DNA of 21,835 bases from a virus (taxonomy: Duplodnaviria; Heunggongvirae; Uroviricota; Caudoviricetes): the IMG/VR virus record IMGVR_UViG_2802429217_000001. One strand, 5' to 3'. A program made the translations under genes and the position numbers. Of the stretch, positions 308-21,835 are shown piece by piece (position 1 is the stretch's first letter; every line of letters starts with the position of its first letter). The notes under the pieces are model-generated. The model was given only the letters and a program-made list of their open reading frames with translations, was not told the DNA's origin and made no database searches.

Positions 308-892
308 TTACTCCGGATATTTAAAAATCACATAGGTATGCGACGGGCAGAGTTTGTTAAGAACACACTCGACAACGGTGTCCCCCCAGAAGCGCAGCGC
401 GGAATCACAGGGATCGCCACATGTCATCCAGGTGGTGTTGGTGGCGGCTGGCATGTTGACCTGCCAGTAATACCGCCATTCCGGCGCATTCACCGCGTCA
501 GTACAGGCCGATGAGCAGGTGAACGTGCTTTTGTCGTATCGCGTGATGGTGGCGTCTGGTCTGCCCAGGGCAGCAAGCTGTGCAAGATAAAAATCCTCAT
601 TGATGCCGCCCGCCAGGTTAACCTTCGCATCCAGCCGTTGCTGACGCTGGCGAAGGGTCTGCGTCCCTGCCGGAATACATTCATCCGGCAGGCCGCACAG
701 ACGCTCCCAGCGGTTTATCAGTTCGGTGGTGGTGCGCGGATCCAGCTCCTGCATCAGGGCATCCGCACGCTGATGAACACGGGTTAATGACGGTGCCGCA
801 CCGGCAATCGCCGGATCGCTGGCTGACCACGCCGGACCGGGCGGCAACAGTGCTGACAACAGACGGATGTAATCATCGTTTGTCACGTCCAT
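308..892 (-). CDS. Tail/baseplate protein, Mu gp48-like (DUF2313/YmfQ-type)
   Basis: 194-aa ORF directly downstream of and overlapping the baseplate J-like gene. Size and position fit the gp48-type protein of Mu-like tail clusters. Family assignment is from memory, not a search. Confidence 0.55.
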
Positions 893-1941
893 GAAATCGC
901 CCCCAGAACCGCCAGTTCATTTTTCGCAATGGTGATATTGTCCGCCGGTGCAAGCAACTGATGGCTGTATTCCCCGTTCGCACCGGAAATCGCTTCACTG
1001 ATACGTGACACCTTCAGTTCTCCCTGCGGATAACCATCACGCAGCAGAAACGAACGCAACTCCGCGGTGATGGCAGCCCGTATTTCCGGTGTGTCCGGCG
1101 TCACACGGATATGAAAATCCACCGTATGTGCCACCGGCCTGAACACAAACAAATCAGAGCCTGCCACCGGGGCCAGTGGCCCGATATGTTGTCTTGCCGC
1201 CGTTTCCGTTGATTCTTCCGGAATGGGATTAATCAGGTCACTGCTGGCAATCATCACACCGACAGTCCCCGTTCCCATCCAGTGTCGGTATGTCCATGCG
1301 CGGGTAATGCCAGGCACTTCTTTAGCCCAGACGACATAGTCCCCGTCAGCCCCGCCCTGCGGCGTCCAGTAATACCGCTCAATGACGCGGGCGCGCCACG
1401 TTTCCAGCTCTTCAGTATCAAATCCGCCTGTCACGGTGTCAGCCACACCGGAAGACGGCAGACCATTCACCGGCGTGACCAGGATTAATGCCGTACCGTC
1501 GTCAGCGTTACCGACCGCACCTGCACTTGAGCAGGCGATCGGCACGCGCAGGACACCACCGGAGCTGGTTGCATCGTCAGTTGTCGTGTACTGCACCAGG
1601 TCATCGCGCTGAATAACACTCCCGGCGGTCACCTTCAGGCCATCGCTGACACCTTCCCAGCGCATATACCCGCTGGCAGCCGTGGCCCCCTTGCGCGGAC
1701 ACCGTTTCATCGCAGCATGTCGCGCCAGCCAGGACTCATCGCACAGGTCAGGCAGCATGTTCATTGCCAGATAATCGATGTACCCGTAAACCGTATGCAG
1801 CGCCGCCGCATACACCTTTGCCCGCACGTCTTCATCCATGCGCCGGAGCGTGTCGCTGACGTCCAGCCTGGCGAATAAATCGTTACGGAGCATACTGATA
1901 TTTTCTGCCAGCGTCGGGCGCTGAAATTCACTGTCCGCCAT
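883..1941 (-). CDS. Baseplate J-like protein (Mu gp47-type)
   Basis: 352-aa ORF in the expected position after the gp46-like gene, overlapping its neighbours as in a coupled operon. Confidence 0.7.
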
Positions 1942-3980: not shown

Positions 3981-5305
3981 TGCACTGGCACCTTCAGAGG
4001 GATCACCGGCACAAAGCCGGGATGCGTAATGGCATTACGCCGGATAATGTCCGCGTCACGCGCCGCGTTATCAAACCAGGTCGCCGCCAGCACCAGCGCG
4101 GGTAAAACCTCATCCGGCGTGCGCTGAATGATCCGTGCAGACTGTTCAAGGCGCGTGTTGATATCCGCATTCAGATCTGCTTTCACCCGGCGCAGCGCCA
4201 GAAACAGCGCATCACTGGTTGTACGGGACAACTCCTTATCAATTGCCGTATTCAGTGTGTCGCGAATGTCGGTCAGTTCTTCCCACGTTGGCAGGTCAAC
4301 CGTGTTTTTCACCGCCGGTGCATTGTTCAGTGCCGGATGCGTGACAGAAGGCCAGCCGGTGCTCTGCGCGGGTGTTGTTGACTGCCCCACTGTGGCATTC
4401 TGCATCACCGCGGAAGTTGTGGGCGCAGGCAATCGTGTGACGGCATACGCCGCTTCGCTGATTGCGGTCGTACGAAGGGTGCTGGCAACCACGTTACGCT
4501 GCTGCGTCGCCGTGGCGGTGGTTTTACTGTCCGTTTTCCAGACGCCGCGCGGTTGCAGATCGCTGCCGAGGATGACACCGGAAAGCGTTTTGATCATGGT
4601 GACCAGGTCGCTGGCGTTACCATAAAGGCGTTTCCCGGTACGCCACATTTTCTGCACCTGCTCAACGAAATTTTTGCCTGACGATGGCGGCGGCAGAAGT
4701 ACCGAGATATCCCCCTGCAACAGCCTGGCGGCATCCGATACGGCAGAATCCACCACTTTCATCGCATCAGAAACATACCCAAGCATTGTGCTGGCATTAC
4801 CGACGACGTCGTTCTGCACAAAATCTGCCACGCCATCGATACTGAAACCACTGAAGCTGTCACTGATGCAGTCATCCAGTGCAGAACAGGATGACATCAG
4901 CGTCTGCGCCGTCGCCGCACCTGAAGTGGGGTAAGAGAGTTCTCCCGCTTCGACAAACTTCAGGTCAAAGCGGACAATACGCCCTTCACTCTTCGATGTG
5001 CTGACCCGAACTTCCCCGTCAACACAGACTTTCAGCTCACCGTAAGTCGGATGGACAAGCGTGCCGGGACCGGGTTTATTCAGCGCGTCAATCAGGCGAT
5101 CGCGCTGGTCAAAGCAGTCATCTCCCACCACATAAGCTGTGATGGACGGGCGGAAAGTGATTTTCCCCAGGTCTTCGGTATAGGGTTTGTCGCGGTTCGG
5201 GTATTCGTGCGTTTCCACACGACGACCGGTTCCCGCACTTTCTTCTTCAACCTTAAACGGCACACCGCGAAATGACGCGTCCTGAAGTCTGTCTTTCCAC
5301 GTCAT
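3977..5305 (-). CDS. DNA circulation protein (Mu N-like)
   Basis: Long ORF (456 aa from the track start at 5347). N-terminus from the internal Met reads MTWKDRLQDASFRGVPFKV..., which I recognise as the N-like DNA-circulation N-terminal pattern. Start placed at ATG 5305 because it has an SD (GGAG, 6-nt spacer) and the 5347 start would overlap a terminator hairpin. Confidence 0.7.
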   Translation of the reverse strand: MTWKDRLQDASFRGVPFKVEEESAGTGRRVETHEYPNRDKPYTEDLGKITFRPSITAYVVGDDCFDQRDRLIDALNKPGPGTLVHPTYGELKVCVDGEVRVSTSKSEGRIVRFDLKFVEAGELSYPTSGAATAQTLMSSCSALDDCISDSFSGFSIDGVADFVQNDVVGNASTMLGYVSDAMKVVDSAVSDAARLLQGDISVLLPPPSSGKNFVEQVQKMWRTGKRLYGNASDLVTMIKTLSGVILGSDLQPRGVWKTDSKTTATATQQRNVVASTLRTTAISEAAYAVTRLPAPTTSAVMQNATVGQSTTPAQSTGWPSVTHPALNNAPAVKNTVDLPTWEELTDIRDTLNTAIDKELSRTTSDALFLALRRVKADLNADINTRLEQSARIIQRTPDEVLPALVLAATWFDNAARDADIIRRNAITHPGFVPVIPLKVPVQ

Positions 5306-7968: not shown

Positions 7969-9464
7969 TATGCGGACTCCTCTGAATACTGAAGACGGAA
8001 CTGGTTAACCACGGCAAAGACACGCAACTGGTTAACATAGTCAGGCGGGAACAGCGTGTTCAGGCGGTTCGGATCGCTGGCATCACGCTCCACAACCAGG
8101 TACTGCTTAAACAGTTCGTAGTTTTCCACGATCCCCGCACGCTCAAGCTGACGGTAGGTTGCCAGCAGTTCCCCTTTGATCACCGCCGGTGTGACAATCG
8201 CCTGACCGGGACCAAAGCGGGTACCGTCGCTGGCAAGCTTGTGACGCCCGTACTTACTGGTAATGACGGATTTCAGTTTGCGCAGCACATACGCGCTGGT
8301 ATGCAGCGTCTCGCTGTCGAGGTAGCTGTTATCCGCAACACCGTAAGCGTTTTTCCTGTACGTGGTGACATCACGCTGAATGCGCAGCACCCCGCTTTCG
8401 ACATACGCCGTTGCCACGCCATGAGACAGCAGGGTCTGTTGTTCGGTCATCGTGAACCGTTTCCCCTTCGGCGCAGGCAGCATCCCCACCAGCTCACCGG
8501 TCTGCGTGGGACGTGCCGGATCGTTGCGAATAAACACCGCTGCGCGGGCGGTACGGCTTGCCGCCAGCTCGTCGGCAGGCGTCTGGGTCTCTTTTTCGTA
8601 TCCCGCCAGGGTAATGTGCTGCTGGTTAAACTGGTCACCTGCGGTCACCAGTTCTGACAGCGTGCCGATCTTTGCCGTATACACATGACCATACAGCTGA
8701 CGCGCATAGCTCCAGCGACCGCTGGTATCGTTCATCTCGGTCACCAGCGTGTTAACGGAGGCCGTGTCGTTGAACGGCAGGCCGATATAATCAAACGGCT
8801 CATCCGCCATTGCAGCCACCGCGCCGGTGAGAACCGGAGCGCCCGTTCCGGCGGTCCCCGTCGCCACGGCAATCTGTACGCCCGCTGGCAGCACTTCGCC
8901 CCCACCAAAGCCGTAGTAATTGAGGCTGACAGGAATTTCATTCCCGCAAAGCCCCTTATGACGCGCGGTCAGCGTGACCACGCCTGCCGAAGATGAGGCC
9001 GTAAACGGCAGGGCCGGAACGGCATTAATGGCATCCTGGATACTGCCGGCAATCGTCGTGACGTTATCTCCGTTGGTCACCGGTGCCTGCACGCGGGTAC
9101 GTCCCACATAAACATTCACCGTGCCGGTTTCGGTTGCCGCCCCGGTCACCGTCAGCGTAACCGTTGCCGCCGCGCCTGTGGCTTCCGGAACGGCAATCAC
9201 ATACAGCTCGCCAAACGGGTCGGTCTGGCGATAAGCCTCGACCATACGCGCCAGCTGACTTCCCGCACCACAAATCTGGCGTGCATAGTCTGCCGACGGC
9301 ATCAGTACCAGACTGTTGGCAACAATCTCTGCACCGTTATTGGCATGACCAATCAGCAGCGATGCTCCGCTGTCCTGTGCAGTATTCGCCGCCTGGTTAT
9401 CCATTTCCGCATAAAACAACGGAACCAGCGTATTCGACGGAATGGTGTTAAAGCTTATCGTCAT
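7968..9464 (-). CDS. Contractile tail sheath protein
   Basis: 498-aa ORF followed by a roughly 120-aa tube gene, the canonical sheath-tube pair of myovirus-type tails. Confidence 0.8.
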   Translation of the reverse strand: MTISFNTIPSNTLVPLFYAEMDNQAANTAQDSGASLLIGHANNGAEIVANSLVLMPSADYARQICGAGSQLARMVEAYRQTDPFGELYVIAVPEATGAAATVTLTVTGAATETGTVNVYVGRTRVQAPVTNGDNVTTIAGSIQDAINAVPALPFTASSSAGVVTLTARHKGLCGNEIPVSLNYYGFGGGEVLPAGVQIAVATGTAGTGAPVLTGAVAAMADEPFDYIGLPFNDTASVNTLVTEMNDTSGRWSYARQLYGHVYTAKIGTLSELVTAGDQFNQQHITLAGYEKETQTPADELAASRTARAAVFIRNDPARPTQTGELVGMLPAPKGKRFTMTEQQTLLSHGVATAYVESGVLRIQRDVTTYRKNAYGVADNSYLDSETLHTSAYVLRKLKSVITSKYGRHKLASDGTRFGPGQAIVTPAVIKGELLATYRQLERAGIVENYELFKQYLVVERDASDPNRLNTLFPPDYVNQLRVFAVVNQFRLQYSEESA

Positions 9465-17280: not shown

Positions 17281-17631
17281 TTACTTCAGCCGTTCACGGG
17301 CCGTCTTCGCCTTATGACACGGCCAGCACAGACTCTGCAGATTATTGTCGGCATCAGTGCCGCCATGCGCTTTAGGGATGATGTGGTCAACGGTTTTTGC
17401 TTCACGCACCACGCCAGCACGCTGGCATAACTGACATAAACCTTTGTCACGCTTCAGCACGCGCGCGCGGATAACGTCCCACTTCGAACCATAACCGCGC
17501 TGATGACGGGACTGACCTGGCTTGTATTGCTTCCAGCCTTCGCTTTTGTGGCTTTCGCAGTAGCCTGAAGGATCTGTGGTGGTATGGCGGCAGCCGCGAA
17601 AACGGCAGGCTTTTGGGGTTCGTGGTGGCAT
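17281..17631 (-). CDS. HNH endonuclease (packaging-associated)
   Basis: 116-aa ORF with Cys pairs and the motif ..VDHIIPKAHGGTDADNNLQSLCWPCHKAKT..; located directly upstream of the terminase genes. Confidence 0.85.
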   Translation of the reverse strand: MPPRTPKACRFRGCRHTTTDPSGYCESHKSEGWKQYKPGQSRHQRGYGSKWDVIRARVLKRDKGLCQLCQRAGVVREAKTVDHIIPKAHGGTDADNNLQSLCWPCHKAKTARERLK

Positions 17632-17733
17632 TTAAAGTGGGATCTAACTCTAATAATTTAAAAAATTTAATTGGGTCTTGATATTAATCACATAGACTCA
17701 ATGCTCTTTAGTTCTTACATAGGTGGTTGTATT

Positions 17734-18174
17734 ATGAGTATCCCCAGTTTAGATGTTCATAAAGTTGTTAAGTGCGCGGAGCATAAAAAGGCTTTAGATG
17801 CAATATCTCTCAAACTTAAGAATAACATTATTGACTCAAGCACTGAATGCGATTTTCTTGGCGACACAATAATTTTCAATCAAGATAAAAAAAATAGGTT
17901 AACCCTCAAACTTTCAACATATGAACTAGAACTTATTTTCAAAGAAACACTGCTGATCATTGATGACGCTCCTGTATTGAAGTTTGCTGCCATTGACCCA
18001 ACCGATGAAAATAACAACGAGTTGATTGATTTATTTTTATCCAAAAATGGATTTATTTATATTAGAGAATACAAATCCGAGCAACGTTATGAATATGGCG
18101 ACACTTCTCTATTTTTACATATACTTGACGCTACTCTTAAAGAGCTTAAAGCTGCAAACAAAATATCCTATTAA
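17734..18174 (+). CDS. Hypothetical protein, AT-rich cargo (moron) gene on the opposite strand
   Basis: Plus-strand ORF in a conspicuously AT-rich island between the Rz and HNH genes. Start set at ATG 17734 (SD AGGTGG, about 7-nt spacer; product MSIPSLDVHK..., 146 aa) rather than the track's TTG 17671. No recognisable family. Confidence 0.5.
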   Translation: MSIPSLDVHKVVKCAEHKKALDAISLKLKNNIIDSSTECDFLGDTIIFNQDKKNRLTLKLSTYELELIFKETLLIIDDAPVLKFAAIDPTDENNNELIDLFLSKNGFIYIREYKSEQRYEYGDTSLFLHILDATLKELKAANKISY

Positions 18175-18352
18175 ATAAATTTTTGCTAACATAGCCCCTC
18201 GCCATGACAAGATTTTCTGTTCTAGATGCAAGGGCTATGTGTGAATATCTATAAACAAAAACCCCATCCGGTGATTTTTGTCATTTTTTAGCCATCTCAA
18301 TTGCGGCATCAAAAAGTCGTTCAAGAATAAAATCAGGGTACTGTAATTTTTC

Positions 18353-18595
18353 TTACTCGATATGAAGCTTATAAATTTTTCTTCCCCACTCCCATTTAAA
18401 ATCAAATCCAGAAGCAGAAGGTGCGAAATGTATTTTAGCTTTAGGGTTAGCGTAACCAGCAACAGTCAACACATCAAACTTAAAATCTTGAGGTTTAATA
18501 CGCATAGTCATATCCTTTACCAAGTTCATCATTATTCTTCGCGAGAATAAAACAATGAATAAAATCATTAAAGCATAGACGTTAAATATCCTCAA
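18353..18595 (-). CDS. Small hypothetical protein, start uncertain
   Basis: 80-aa ORF from a TTG start with a hydrophobic N-terminus (ALMILFIVLF). Alternative start at ATG 18505 (SD AAGGA, 7-nt spacer) gives a 50-aa product MRIKPQDFKFDVLTVAGYANPKAKIHFAPSASGFDFKWEWG.... AT-rich. Confidence 0.3.
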   Translation of the reverse strand: MRIFNVYALMILFIVLFSRRIMMNLVKDMTMRIKPQDFKFDVLTVAGYANPKAKIHFAPSASGFDFKWEWGRKIYKLHIE

Positions 18596-18602
18596 AATGT
18601 GA

Positions 18603-19675: not shown

Positions 19676-19956
19676 TAGTGCCTCAGATGATCAACCAGAC
19701 GTGCAACGTTGCCTCTGACGGCCACCAGCACGGAAAGAAAAATAGTGTTCGCCACGATAATGGGCCATGAGGAATGGGGATAAATCCCACAGAGATAGGC
19801 CAACGGAACAGCACTGTATGTAACAGTAATCAGCCAGGCTAAACGTGAAACCCAAGGACGATGCCGCGAATCACCACGACGATAAAACATCAGAGTAATA
19901 ACAACACAAGCACATAACAGCGCATTTATAGTTGCTGTCGGGTCATTTAGCTCCAC
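19675..19956 (-). CDS. Holin-like / lysis membrane protein (93 aa)
   Basis: Small protein with 2-3 hydrophobic segments, GTG start with SD GGAGG 5-6 nt upstream; overlaps both neighbours. Holin versus antiholin not resolvable. Confidence 0.5.
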   Translation of the reverse strand: MELNDPTATINALLCACVVITLMFYRRGDSRHRPWVSRLAWLITVTYSAVPLAYLCGIYPHSSWPIIVANTIFLSVLVAVRGNVARLVDHLRH

Positions 19957-20329
19957 CTGAACCTCCCCGGCGCGTTATAAGCGCCACCAGCGAACCGATA
20001 TCCTGGTTATTCAGAAACGTCAGGATTTTAACGGCTAAAGCAGAGACGATTACGGCACCAATAGCATCCAGAGGTTTATCACTGTATCCGGTCAAGTTTG
20101 CCAGCTTGGAGCCAACCAACCCAGAGCAAAGGATCCCAGCAATATATGACACGATAAAATATGCCAGTCGACGCGATGCACTCAGATCTGCTGCTGTTGC
20201 TATATAGAATACAGCCCCTGCAAATGCGCCAAATACAACGCCGTAATCAGTTCCGGTCAGCAGTCCATAAATACTAGCGCCCGTTAGGGCTCCACCAGCT
20301 AACCCTGTGCCGGAAATCGGATCGGACAT
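19943..20329 (-). CDS. Putative holin (about 128 aa, multi-TM)
   Basis: MSDPISGTGLAGGALTGASIYGLL... with 3-4 Gly/Ala-rich hydrophobic segments and a charged C-terminus. Start set at ATG 20329 (SD GAGGTGG); the track's start at 20395 would span two hairpins and a U-tract. Confidence 0.55.
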   Translation of the reverse strand: MSDPISGTGLAGGALTGASIYGLLTGTDYGVVFGAFAGAVFYIATAADLSASRRLAYFIVSYIAGILCSGLVGSKLANLTGYSDKPLDAIGAVIVSALAVKILTFLNNQDIGSLVALITRRGGSGGAK

Positions 20330-20380
20330 TAGCCACCTCTTATTGCAGTGAGTCCTCTCAGAAATAGAAATGAGAGGAAT

Positions 20381-20404
20381 AAAAAAGGCCACCATTTGGC
20401 AGCC
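20381..20404 (-). terminator. Rho-independent terminator between the cargo gene and the holin
   Basis: Minus-strand GGCUGCC-AAAU-GGUGGCC (two G-U pairs; plus 20387-20404) followed by U6 (plus a-run 20381-20386). A second hairpin CCUCUCA-N10-UGAGAGG (plus 20354-20377) follows. Confidence 0.5.
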
Positions 20405-20437
20405 ATAGAATTGATGTAATTATAACTAATTCATTAA

Positions 20438-21244
20438 CTATTTCTTAATGATGCTATTTAACATTTCTAATGCAAAAAGCAACATGGAGCTAATAAAATA
20501 TAATATAACCGCACTGGCAATCGCTCCAATTATAGCCTGGACACTCCAATGAAAGTAATTTTTACCATTAATAACAAACTTAACGCTAGGAAACAAAAAG
20601 TCGATAAGCTTAATTATTAATGGAATAGCAAAGCTCCATAAGTTCGAAAACAAAATAAAGATACAAATAAATGATAAAGCAAATGCACCATCGATTGATA
20701 GTTTTGGCGCCAGTTTTGAGGCTGTCCATAAGCTAAGCAAAAAGCCAACTGTCACACCTGAAATCTGGATACTTAACATAGTCCAAGCTGTTCTAAAAAA
20801 TCTAAATTTATTTTTGCACTTGTTAAGTAAATCCTGAATCGTAATCCATAACGAGTCAACCCACTCATTATCTTCCGATGCTACAATCATTGTGCTGCTA
20901 TTTGAATTCCTCTCATCAATTCGTAGCTCCATCCAAGATCCATTCATCCTGTTAGACTGTCGACTTTGATAAGTTTCAATAGTAAAAATTATTTGATCAA
21001 TCCTAGTGGCCTGTCTAAAGTATTTCACAAGCTCACCGATAGAATCAACTTTATATCCCTTACCATCGAACAAAATAAAAAAAACACATTGAGCACAAAC
21101 TTCCCTACTTTCCTTTTGAGCTTGCTCATTCATTTTAACGCAGCGTTCGACAATTGCCGTGCTTAAGCTAATCAAGCTATCTTCATTTATAGAAACACCT
21201 GAAATATTCTTGCTTCTGTAAAAATATGACACTTTCGATTCCAC
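20438..21244 (-). CDS. Hypothetical two-domain membrane protein (268 aa), AT-rich cargo
   Basis: N-terminal roughly 150-aa soluble part and C-terminal multi-TM part (..GVTVGFLLSLW.., ..AFALSFICIFILFSNLWSFAIPLII.., ..AIIGAIASAVILYFISSMLLFAL..). GTG start at 21244 is uncertain. No recognisable family. Confidence 0.5.
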   Translation of the reverse strand: MESKVSYFYRSKNISGVSINEDSLISLSTAIVERCVKMNEQAQKESREVCAQCVFFILFDGKGYKVDSIGELVKYFRQATRIDQIIFTIETYQSRQSNRMNGSWMELRIDERNSNSSTMIVASEDNEWVDSLWITIQDLLNKCKNKFRFFRTAWTMLSIQISGVTVGFLLSLWTASKLAPKLSIDGAFALSFICIFILFSNLWSFAIPLIIKLIDFLFPSVKFVINGKNYFHWSVQAIIGAIASAVILYFISSMLLFALEMLNSIIKK

Positions 21245-21348
21245 TCCGCACCAGTCTCGATTTAGCGCAGGTTAACATAACCACTTCATTGGTAGAAGAA
21301 AAGAACTCTTCTTGTCAGAAAGCTACTGTGATATCCCTAAACCTGCAG

Positions 21349-21376
21349 ATGATACAGAACAAAATTTAAGCATCAA
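21349..21376 (-). promoter_or_regulatory. Candidate sigma70-like promoter for the 268-aa gene
   Basis: Minus strand: TTGATG (plus 21371-21376), 16-nt spacer, TATCAT (plus 21349-21354). A perfect TATAAT lies adjacent at plus 21376-21381. Confidence 0.3.
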
Positions 21377-21409
21377 TTATAGGCGATTTTAAATTCACTT
21401 TACAGTTTA

Positions 21410-21427
21410 GGCTGCCAATTGGCAGCC
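21410..21427. other. Perfect 18-bp palindrome GGCTGCCAATTGGCAGCC
   Basis: 7-bp arms with a 4-bp spacer, 15 nt downstream of the 89-aa gene stop. A near-copy lies at 20387-20404 (see the terminator feature). Confidence 0.5.
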
Positions 21428-21441
21428 GATTGAAGCAGAAA

Positions 21442-21711
21442 TCAATGAGTGCTCATCGATGAATTTTTTTCAGCGCCAATCTCACTCAAAAAAGCAAAAC
21501 CTTTTGACGTTATCTCATTAGCAATCAATCCACCTTCGGCAGATTTGCTTCGTATAACATCGATAAAACCTATATCAGCAAGATCTGAAATAGCAAAATT
21601 AACCTCTTTTGCTGAGAGATGAGGTAATGATGCAGCCTGAATTCTAGAATCCTTTGGCTGCAATTCATTCACTCGACGTAGTATTTCAAGATGGATAGAG
21701 GTCAGTTTCAT
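21442..21711 (-). CDS. Hypothetical small protein (89 aa), possible winged-helix DNA-binding regulator
   Basis: MKLTSIHLEILRRVNELQPKD...LSAKEVNFAISDLADIGFIDVIRSKSAEGGLIANEITSKGFAFL: helix-turn-helix-like segment followed by a Gly-containing wing-like stretch. Strong SD AGGAGA; own promoter upstream. Confidence 0.45.
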   Translation of the reverse strand: MKLTSIHLEILRRVNELQPKDSRIQAASLPHLSAKEVNFAISDLADIGFIDVIRSKSAEGGLIANEITSKGFAFLSEIGAEKNSSMSTH

Positions 21712-21748
21712 AATGTTCTCCTGTTTTTAATGTTGTTTTACAGAAAAC

Positions 21749-21757
21749 ATTATAACA
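21749..21757 (-). promoter_or_regulatory. Extended -10 promoter element (TGtTATAAT) for the 89-aa gene
   Basis: Minus-strand TGTTATAAT (plus 21749-21757), about 38 nt upstream of the ATG. The -35 region is weak. Confidence 0.45.
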
Positions 21758-21803
21758 CATTGATTTTGATGTAGATTGAATAGAAAAAAACCATAATAAA
21801 TAT

Positions 21804-21827
21804 CCTCCGGCATAGCCGGAGGTTTTT
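21804..21827 (+). terminator. Rho-independent terminator hairpin, possibly bidirectional
   Basis: Plus strand CCTCCGGC-ATA-GCCGGAGG followed by TTTTT (21823-21827). The opposite side carries an A7 run and A/T-rich sequence. Confidence 0.55.
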
Positions 21828-21835
21828 CAAATGCG

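Follow-up and report, generated by a model that had tools for sequence, protein, structure and literature searches.

A foreign AT-rich block ahead of the holin genes of an Escherichia coli lambdoid prophage encodes a predicted three-helix membrane protein of a family without a described relative

Three kinds of described systems stand closest to the locus analysed here. Lambdoid phages carry morons in the Q-to-S slot, which extends from the late terminator downstream of Q to the holin, and stxAB in Stx phages, the porin genes nmpC/lc, the csp genes in Qin, and phage DNA methyltransferases are examples. The second kind is composed of membrane exclusion and abortive-infection proteins, such as lambda RexB with RexA, P22 SieA/SieB, T4 Imm, and the transmembrane (TM) effectors of CBASS, Pycsar, Thoeris, and retron systems. 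The third kind is composed of holins and antiholins (lambda S105/S107, T4 T/RI, P1 LydA/LydB, P2 Y/LysA, and Pfam Phage_holin). The locus in question is contained in a stretch of viral DNA of 21,835 nucleotides (nt), IMG/VR record IMGVR_UViG_2802429217_000001, the whole of which is called the window. It is an inserted block of about 1.44 kb (about 20365–21795, minus strand) in an E. coli lambdoid prophage, located after the late terminator that follows Q and before the holin, and it encodes an 89-amino-acid (aa) protein and a 264-aa inner-membrane protein. The 264-aa protein is tentatively read as a membrane-acting effector for the exclusion or abortive infection of competing phages, with a probability of about 0.35.

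The GC content of positions 20300–21800 was 0.33–0.38, compared with 0.50–0.61 over most of the window. For the inserted block itself it was 34–37%, and for the prophage 52–60%. The minus-strand order, read 5' to 3' from the right end of the window, was the end of an IS200C insertion sequence (IS), the 89-aa open reading frame (ORF), a hairpin, the 268-aa ORF, a terminator, Phage_holin_8, Phage_holin_3_7, a GH19 endolysin, and Rz with an embedded Rz1. An earlier description made from the letters alone, called here the sequence-only reading, had placed two genes in an AT-rich block of a GC-rich prophage directly before the lysis genes. Both ORFs were found on the minus strand at 21442–21711 (89 aa) and 20438–21244 (268 aa, the longest ORF), and the base composition and the downstream lysis genes agreed with that description.

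The sequence-only reading had also proposed that the block is cargo inserted into the Q-to-holin slot, and comparison with related prophages supported this. In strain F9792 (locus L001), antiterminator Q, a short leader, and the terminator ACCTCGCTATTGCGAGGTTTTTTT were located directly upstream of the cassette. In strain 1517k (L012), which has the same Q and the same holins, the slot held a different gene of 85 aa (phrog_3501). The extent of the insert, about 20365–21795, was set by the alignment with this strain, because homology with the window restarts at TCTGAGAGGA, roughly 30 nt ahead of the ATG of the holin. We read the block as a moron, a piece of cargo DNA that a lambdoid prophage of E. 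coli carries in its Q-to-holin slot.

The gene of the membrane protein was assigned to 20438–21232 on the minus strand. Its reading frame is open to a GTG at 21244, which accounts for the 268 aa given earlier. An ORF of that length exists, and the gene product is likely to be the 264-aa protein that starts at GTG 21232, because this start is called by PGAP and the N-terminus from there is kept in distant homologues. The first 37 residues of the long protein were conserved in distant family members. A 231-aa form starting at M38 (PHROG 30208, cluster P0003) was considered and rejected, since the 36 codons upstream were conserved in frame in distant homologues and were nonsense-interrupted in L040. 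The long protein matched phrog_30208, a PHROG without functional annotation, with an E value of 8.5e-162. This profile covered residues 38–268 only and was apparently built from N-terminally truncated gene calls.

The family of the 264-aa protein was built by an exhaustive hidden Markov model (HMM) search using an alignment of nine clusters from a word-indexed search. It comprised 230 representative clusters (50% identity) at E ≤ 1e-3, with 127 at E ≤ 1e-30, and nearly all members were about 260 aa in length, aligned end to end, and shared the same layout. The AlphaFold2 model, based on 105 homologues, had a pLDDT of 94.3 and a pTM of 0.84 and was composed of an alpha/beta domain followed by three long helices. 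In this model, the soluble domain (residues ~1–140) contained strands at residues 4–9, 13–15, 47–55, 58–62, 78–87, 100–106, and 114–119 and helices at residues 17–40, 65–74, and 122–138, and the TM helices were located at residues ~149–177, 183–213, and 226–263. A soluble N-terminal domain joined to a multi-TM C-terminal domain had been proposed from the letters alone, and the structure prediction agreed with it, specifying three TM helices. The mean number of Lys and Arg residues over the 105 homologues was 3.5 before the first TM helix, 0.6 in loop 1, and 3.5 in loop 2. By the positive-inside rule, the acidic N-terminal domain is therefore cytoplasmic, and the periplasmic loop consists of just 11 residues.

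Residues D7, R54, D56, G59, A75, and W124 of the soluble domain were nearly invariant, as were Q156, F188, W199, P215, and F219 of the membrane part, in addition to S167 and an S196-N197 motif. The conserved polar residues within the TM helices were Q156, S167, and S196-N197-x-W199.

No characterised family was matched by either protein, as had been suspected. Scans of both proteins against Pfam, NCBIfam, and PADLOC-DB 2.0 gave nothing significant, the long protein had no Pfam match at E ≤ 1, and the PHROGs to which the two proteins were assigned (30208 and 32916) carry no function. Domain fusions were sought by a Pfam scan of the 105 relatives and 10 longer variants, which gave sporadic chance matches only, none of them recurrent. 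A search of the PDB with the 105-sequence profile had a best E value of 0.76, and a Foldseek comparison of the model with the PDB and BFVD gave no match at E < 1e-3 and no convincing fold match. The N-terminal domain may be an alpha/beta sandwich of the TBP-like or AdoMetDC-like kind. A tblastn search gave no match in 50,697 phage records and 72,556 plasmids. In the literature, nothing was found for the RefSeq accession or for DUF2513, and searches on lambdoid morons and defence hotspots yielded no description of the family.

Most family members lie outside phages. The non-enterobacterial carriers were Methylobacter, Gallionella, Thiobacillus, Methyloversatilis, Thiomicrorhabdus, Nitrospira, Bacteroidota, and many metagenome contigs. 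Of 19 loci drawn from Proteobacteria, Nitrospirota, and Bacteroidota, 18 had a family gene whose GC content was 4–24 points below that of its flanks. More than 40 environmental loci had no lysis genes nearby and no conserved neighbour. The family gene has the character of an autonomous one-gene unit that moves horizontally, and its mobility extends across bacterial phyla. This distribution bears on the reading of the gene as one for lysogenic conversion or general membrane physiology, which would serve in stress tolerance, in the membrane anchoring of a cytoplasmic ligand, or in immunity to a membrane-targeting toxin. We consider such a role unlikely, as the gene is rare, patchy, and compositionally foreign nearly everywhere, which is unusual for a physiological function, and it was repeatedly found in prophages, in mobile elements, and near toxin-antitoxin or defence genes.

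A conserved partner gene was also sought and rejected, since an all-against-all BLASTP comparison of 808 neighbouring ORFs from 46 loci revealed no recurrent partner. The proposal of a functional two-gene module in the sequence-only reading was thereby not sustained: the pairing with the 89-aa gene occurred only in one clonal cassette (at least 98.8% identity), no neighbour recurred in the 46 loci, and other genes were located upstream elsewhere. The upstream gene was the 89-aa gene in E. coli, a type II N6/N4 methyltransferase in two lineages, and an unrelated 66-aa ORF in L004. This 66-aa ORF was examined as a homologue of the 89-aa protein and rejected, with no BLASTP alignment and no Pfam match. 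The methyltransferase (PADLOC model PDLC03265) was located upstream at L005 2541–3614, L008 4886–5941, and L040 5760–6806, and the methyltransferases of the two lineages were 74% identical, compared with 52% for the family proteins. It was the sole recurrent neighbour seen and was confined to enterobacterial prophages.

The 264-aa gene is under purifying selection, as a ratio of nonsynonymous to synonymous substitution rates (dN/dS) of 0.14–0.16 was obtained against a prophage lineage with 78% identity. Between the window and this lineage, homology began at the coding sequence and continued through the terminator into the holin, with an identity of 96%. The intrinsic terminator, GGCTGCCAAATGGTGGCC followed by TTTTTTATT, was located between the 264-aa gene and the holin on the minus strand (20378–20404, including a hairpin at 20387–20404 and a T-run). 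The intergenic region bearing it was 96% conserved in L008, L040, and L037, which are holin_8 lineages, and the 51%-identical homologue in L004 was followed by a different hairpin with a T-run. A terminator followed the gene in all three prophage lineages looked at.

Damage to the gene was found in several prophages. In a Hafnia/Citrobacter prophage (L040, 6890–7000), a nonsense codon was located at about residue 36 of the family gene, with the upstream codons otherwise in frame. Two E. coli genomes (L046 and L049, ~4480–4780) had indels in the long gene, and the partial family clusters P0004 and P0007 also exist. Recurrent N-terminal damage of this kind would fit a costly or toxic gene.

In the preferred reading, that of a membrane-acting effector, the cytoplasmic domain would sense or bind a cytoplasmic cue, and the TM helices would in turn affect the inner membrane, with oligomerisation and a change in its permeability as the most plausible route. 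The likely outcome would be the exclusion of competing phages or the abortion of their infection. In lysogenic cells, a weak promoter of its own would drive the gene, with the terminator insulating it from the holin, and in the lytic cycle, polymerase modified by Q would transcribe through it. Some of the neighbourhoods of the family gene are consistent with such a role. Defence, toxin-antitoxin, or mobile-element neighbours were found in L002, the P0164 contig, L039, L024, and L004. Some homologues adjoined GmrSD, HEPN, and TumE, and others were located beside an integrase, an AAA_21 ATPase, and a resolvase, beside a SocA_Panacea toxin-antitoxin gene, or beside toxin-antitoxin-like genes (L024). 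The Q-holin slot of L004 also contained, at 436–1849 (minus strand), the two genes of PDC-M11, a candidate defence system in PADLOC (E values of 1e-131 and 6e-49), beside the family gene and on the opposite strand.

A broader version of this reading would make the 264-aa protein the founder of a new class of single-protein anti-phage or abortive-infection effectors. Such effectors would combine a TBP-like cytoplasmic sensor with a three-helix membrane-disrupting module. Their gene, forming an AT-rich islet by itself, would have been passed among Proteobacteria, Nitrospirota, and Bacteroidota, and enterobacterial prophages would have taken it up in the Q-holin slot. We regard this version as doubtful.

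Several observations weigh against the effector reading. The environmental neighbours were mostly housekeeping genes (sdh, bio, ruvB, and ABC transporters), and the defence-island signal is therefore weak. Both proteins had zero matches in PADLOC-DB 2.0 at E ≤ 1. In the enterobacterial prophage clade, the near-invariant residues D7, R54, and R80 were replaced by S7, L/Y54, and Q/K80, respectively, and because of these replacements, the activity of the prophage-clade protein may differ from that of the rest of the family. The correlated loss of the three residues may mark a changed ligand site or changed regulation. In E. coli, moreover, H-NS commonly silences DNA that is rich in AT. Own promoter-like elements had been claimed for each gene, and a generic scan with the sigma-70 consensus gave 6 promoter-like sites, compared with 5.8 in shuffled sequences, which is the level of chance. 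What stands of that claim is an extended -10 element at 21757–21749 and a TATAAT box at 21381–21376. The remaining points concern the position of the gene in enterobacterial prophages, where it was always the last before the holin and co-oriented with it, and its distance from the methyltransferase gene, which was 59–73 nt in two lineages. The co-orientation before the holin and this short gap fit late co-expression at least as well as expression in the lysogen.

The same position gives rise to the main alternative, according to which the protein is a late-expressed accessory lysis factor on the Q-dependent transcript, tuning holin firing as an antiholin-like inhibitor or acting as a holin-independent membrane primer. 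In the window, the first lysis gene is Phage_holin_8 (19943–20329, minus strand; Pfam E value of 1.5e-34). The pre-holin position was held behind two different Q families and before two unrelated lysis cassettes (holin_8, holin_3_7, and GH19; holin_2_1 and Phage_lysozyme) in every enterobacterial prophage seen. The short gap behind the methyltransferase suggests co-transcription, and Q antitermination, an established feature of lambda biology, would override the flanking terminators. We nevertheless consider a lysis factor unlikely. Neither the protein nor its 105 relatives had a Pfam holin match or similarity to the Pfam antiholin families, and an hhalign comparison of the long protein with both adjacent holins gave a probability of 0.1%, so the homology to a routine lysis component that would have overturned the sequence-only reading was not found. 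The family is in its majority non-phage, and the more than 40 environmental loci lack lysis genes or any conserved neighbour. Strain 1517k has identical holins and lacks the gene, which is carried by only 41 of 5426 genomes. A terminator separates the gene from the holin in the three lineages looked at. Since the two holin types are unrelated, the gene does not co-vary with a partner.

The 41 genomes were found with a 1.5-kb query, which was 99.3–99.6% identical to its matches among 5426 complete E. coli genomes, and in these genomes PGAP (RefSeq) annotates two hypothetical proteins followed by holins. A related Q region occurred in about 2500 of the 5426, compared with 41 for the cassette. 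When each gene was searched singly, the identical set of 41 genomes was retrieved at an identity of at least 99%. Across 23 fetched loci, the whole cassette was 98.8–99.7% identical, and at least 99.4% identical in 22 of them. The cassette is therefore one clonal unit, and the co-occurrence of the 89-aa and 264-aa genes carries no independent weight on their functional coupling. The cassette was also retained in three degraded prophage remnants without Q (L047, L052, and L053).

The 89-aa gene (21442–21711, minus strand) starts with ATG, and a strong Shine-Dalgarno sequence, AGGAG, is located 6 nt upstream (21722–21718). Its candidate promoter is the extended -10 element TGTTATAAT on the minus strand (21757–21749), located 27 nt before AGGAG. 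This element is a perfect extended -10 and the sole TGNTATAAT on the minus strand within 20300–21835, and it was missed by the two-hexamer promoter scan. An inverted repeat with 16-nt arms at 21743–21758 and 21705–21720 (81% complementary, separated by 22 nt) overlaps both the start codon of the gene and its -10 box and is a candidate operator (21705–21758). The 89-aa protein was assigned to phrog_32916, a PHROG without functional annotation, with an E value of 2.9e-61. Its match to DUF2513 (E value of 2.4e-4, 21.8 bits) was below the cut-off of 29.6, and the matches to HTH_45, wHTH-PRTase_assc, Lrs14, and MarR_EPS were weaker still, all of them sub-threshold. A sequence search of the PDB gave nothing below E = 1, and in an index of 5.8 billion proteins, its relatives were near-identical copies only. 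It is probably a small winged-helix protein, and most likely a DNA-binding regulator that is a companion specific to the E. coli lineage rather than a conserved partner. Conjecturally, the inverted repeat that overlaps its promoter may be its target.

The region between the two genes contained a perfect 7-bp hairpin, GGCTGCCAATTGGCAGCC, at 21410–21427. A hairpin after each gene had been claimed, and both are present. The one after the 264-aa gene is a canonical intrinsic terminator, whereas the one after the 89-aa gene has no U-tract. The intergenic hairpin (21409–21427) was 84% identical to the stem of the terminator (20386–20404). The -10-like box AATNAATNNGTTATAAT occurred twice, before the 89-aa gene (21749–21765) and just past the 264-aa stop, ahead of the terminator (20419–20435). 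The likeness of the flanking hairpins and the repeated box may be the trace of a joining of modules, or may represent a tiny promoter-terminator unit. The TATAAT box on the minus strand (21381–21376) is located about 145 nt before the start of the 264-aa gene and is a candidate promoter with a long structured leader. The fold of the 221-nt intergenic RNA had a z score of -2.5 relative to shuffled sequences, which is weak evidence of structure. The GTG start of the 264-aa gene was preceded by a poorly spaced Shine-Dalgarno sequence.

This arrangement recalls a toxin-antitoxin-like addiction pair, with the membrane protein as a toxin by which the prophage or its remnant would be stabilised and the 89-aa protein as an antitoxin or repressor. 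An order in which a small DNA-binding protein precedes a membrane protein is common in toxin-antitoxin loci, the two genes were together in 41 of 41 E. coli genomes and were kept in the remnants without Q, and the weak translation signals, the structured leader, and the occasional inactivation of the membrane gene are in line with it. We nonetheless judge an addiction pair very unlikely. The pairing is confined to one clonal lineage and hence adds no independent evidence, the family gene of other lineages is solitary or follows unrelated genes, and no detectable relatives of the 89-aa protein are linked to the family. The two genes are also about 200 nt apart with a hairpin between them and do not form an overlapping operon.

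The upstream limit of the cassette in the window is formed by the terminal ~49 nt of IS200C (21787–21835, strand not assigned), which lie outside the cassette. A 50-nt query from this end was found at 8913 places in 2217 E. coli genomes, with up to 35 copies per genome, and in L044 the sequence adjoined the IS200C tnpA. A hairpin at 21804–21822 was considered as the phage late terminator and rejected, because this multicopy repeat beside tnpA identifies it as the IS end. The only Rfam match was a sub-threshold one to STnc490 (21 bits, compared with a gathering score of 56), which overlapped the IS200 end. In cassette-bearing genomes without the IS, the phage terminator ACCTCGCTATTGCGAGGTTTTTTT was present at the junction where the window has the IS200C end. 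The IS200C copy sits exactly between the phage late terminator and the cassette, and the window ends within this copy. The junction of IS200C and cassette was found in 0 of the 41 complete cassette-bearing genomes, whose coverage stops at 21807.

A second AT-rich block was present at 17600–18600 (GC content of 0.32–0.36), between Rz/Rz1 and the HNH endonuclease and terminase genes. Its ORFs at 17671–18174 (plus strand, 167 aa), 18235–18462 (minus strand), and 18353–18595 (minus strand) had no Pfam, PHROG, or PADLOC match. Different genes were located at this position in related prophages, and the block is probably another cargo slot.

As it stands, the locus is a well-delimited moron of hypothetical proteins, which is a common situation in prophages. 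Should the 264-aa protein be an autonomous effector, whether anti-phage or membrane-permeabilising, the defence repertoire would gain a one-gene system of new structure, and a family of at least 230 sequence clusters without a Pfam entry or structural relative would receive a function. The case for mining the Q-to-holin interval of lambdoid prophages as a hotspot would also be strengthened, as a PADLOC candidate system and orphan methyltransferases share this slot in relatives. If the protein tunes lysis instead, it would be a lysis accessory that is independent of the holin type.

Compared with the morons of the Q-to-S slot, the cassette occupies the same position and shares their variable presence among near-identical prophages, their foreign base composition, and their own terminator. 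Its gene content is unrelated, with no toxin, porin, Csp, or methyltransferase domain. The holins and antiholins resemble the 264-aa protein as three-TM membrane proteins, and the gene adjoins the lysis cassette and is co-oriented with it. However, the 264-aa protein carries a large folded cytoplasmic domain and is not a small holin, and the linkage of the family to lysis cassettes is limited to enterobacterial prophages. The membrane exclusion and abortive-infection proteins would share a similar logic by analogy, with a cytoplasm-facing sensing part and TM helices able to compromise the membrane, and they are likewise carried by prophages and mobile elements. The 264-aa protein has no sequence, profile, or fold similarity to them, and it holds the putative sensor and the TM part in one polypeptide, without a signal-generating partner gene. 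Its three-helix topology with the N-terminus inside and its possibly TBP-like domain of 140 residues match no named system. The direct family matches of the long and the 89-aa proteins are PHROG 30208 and PHROG 32916, both groups without functional annotation. Built on a protein family without a described relative, the element is of a familiar kind, a prophage moron with a membrane protein.

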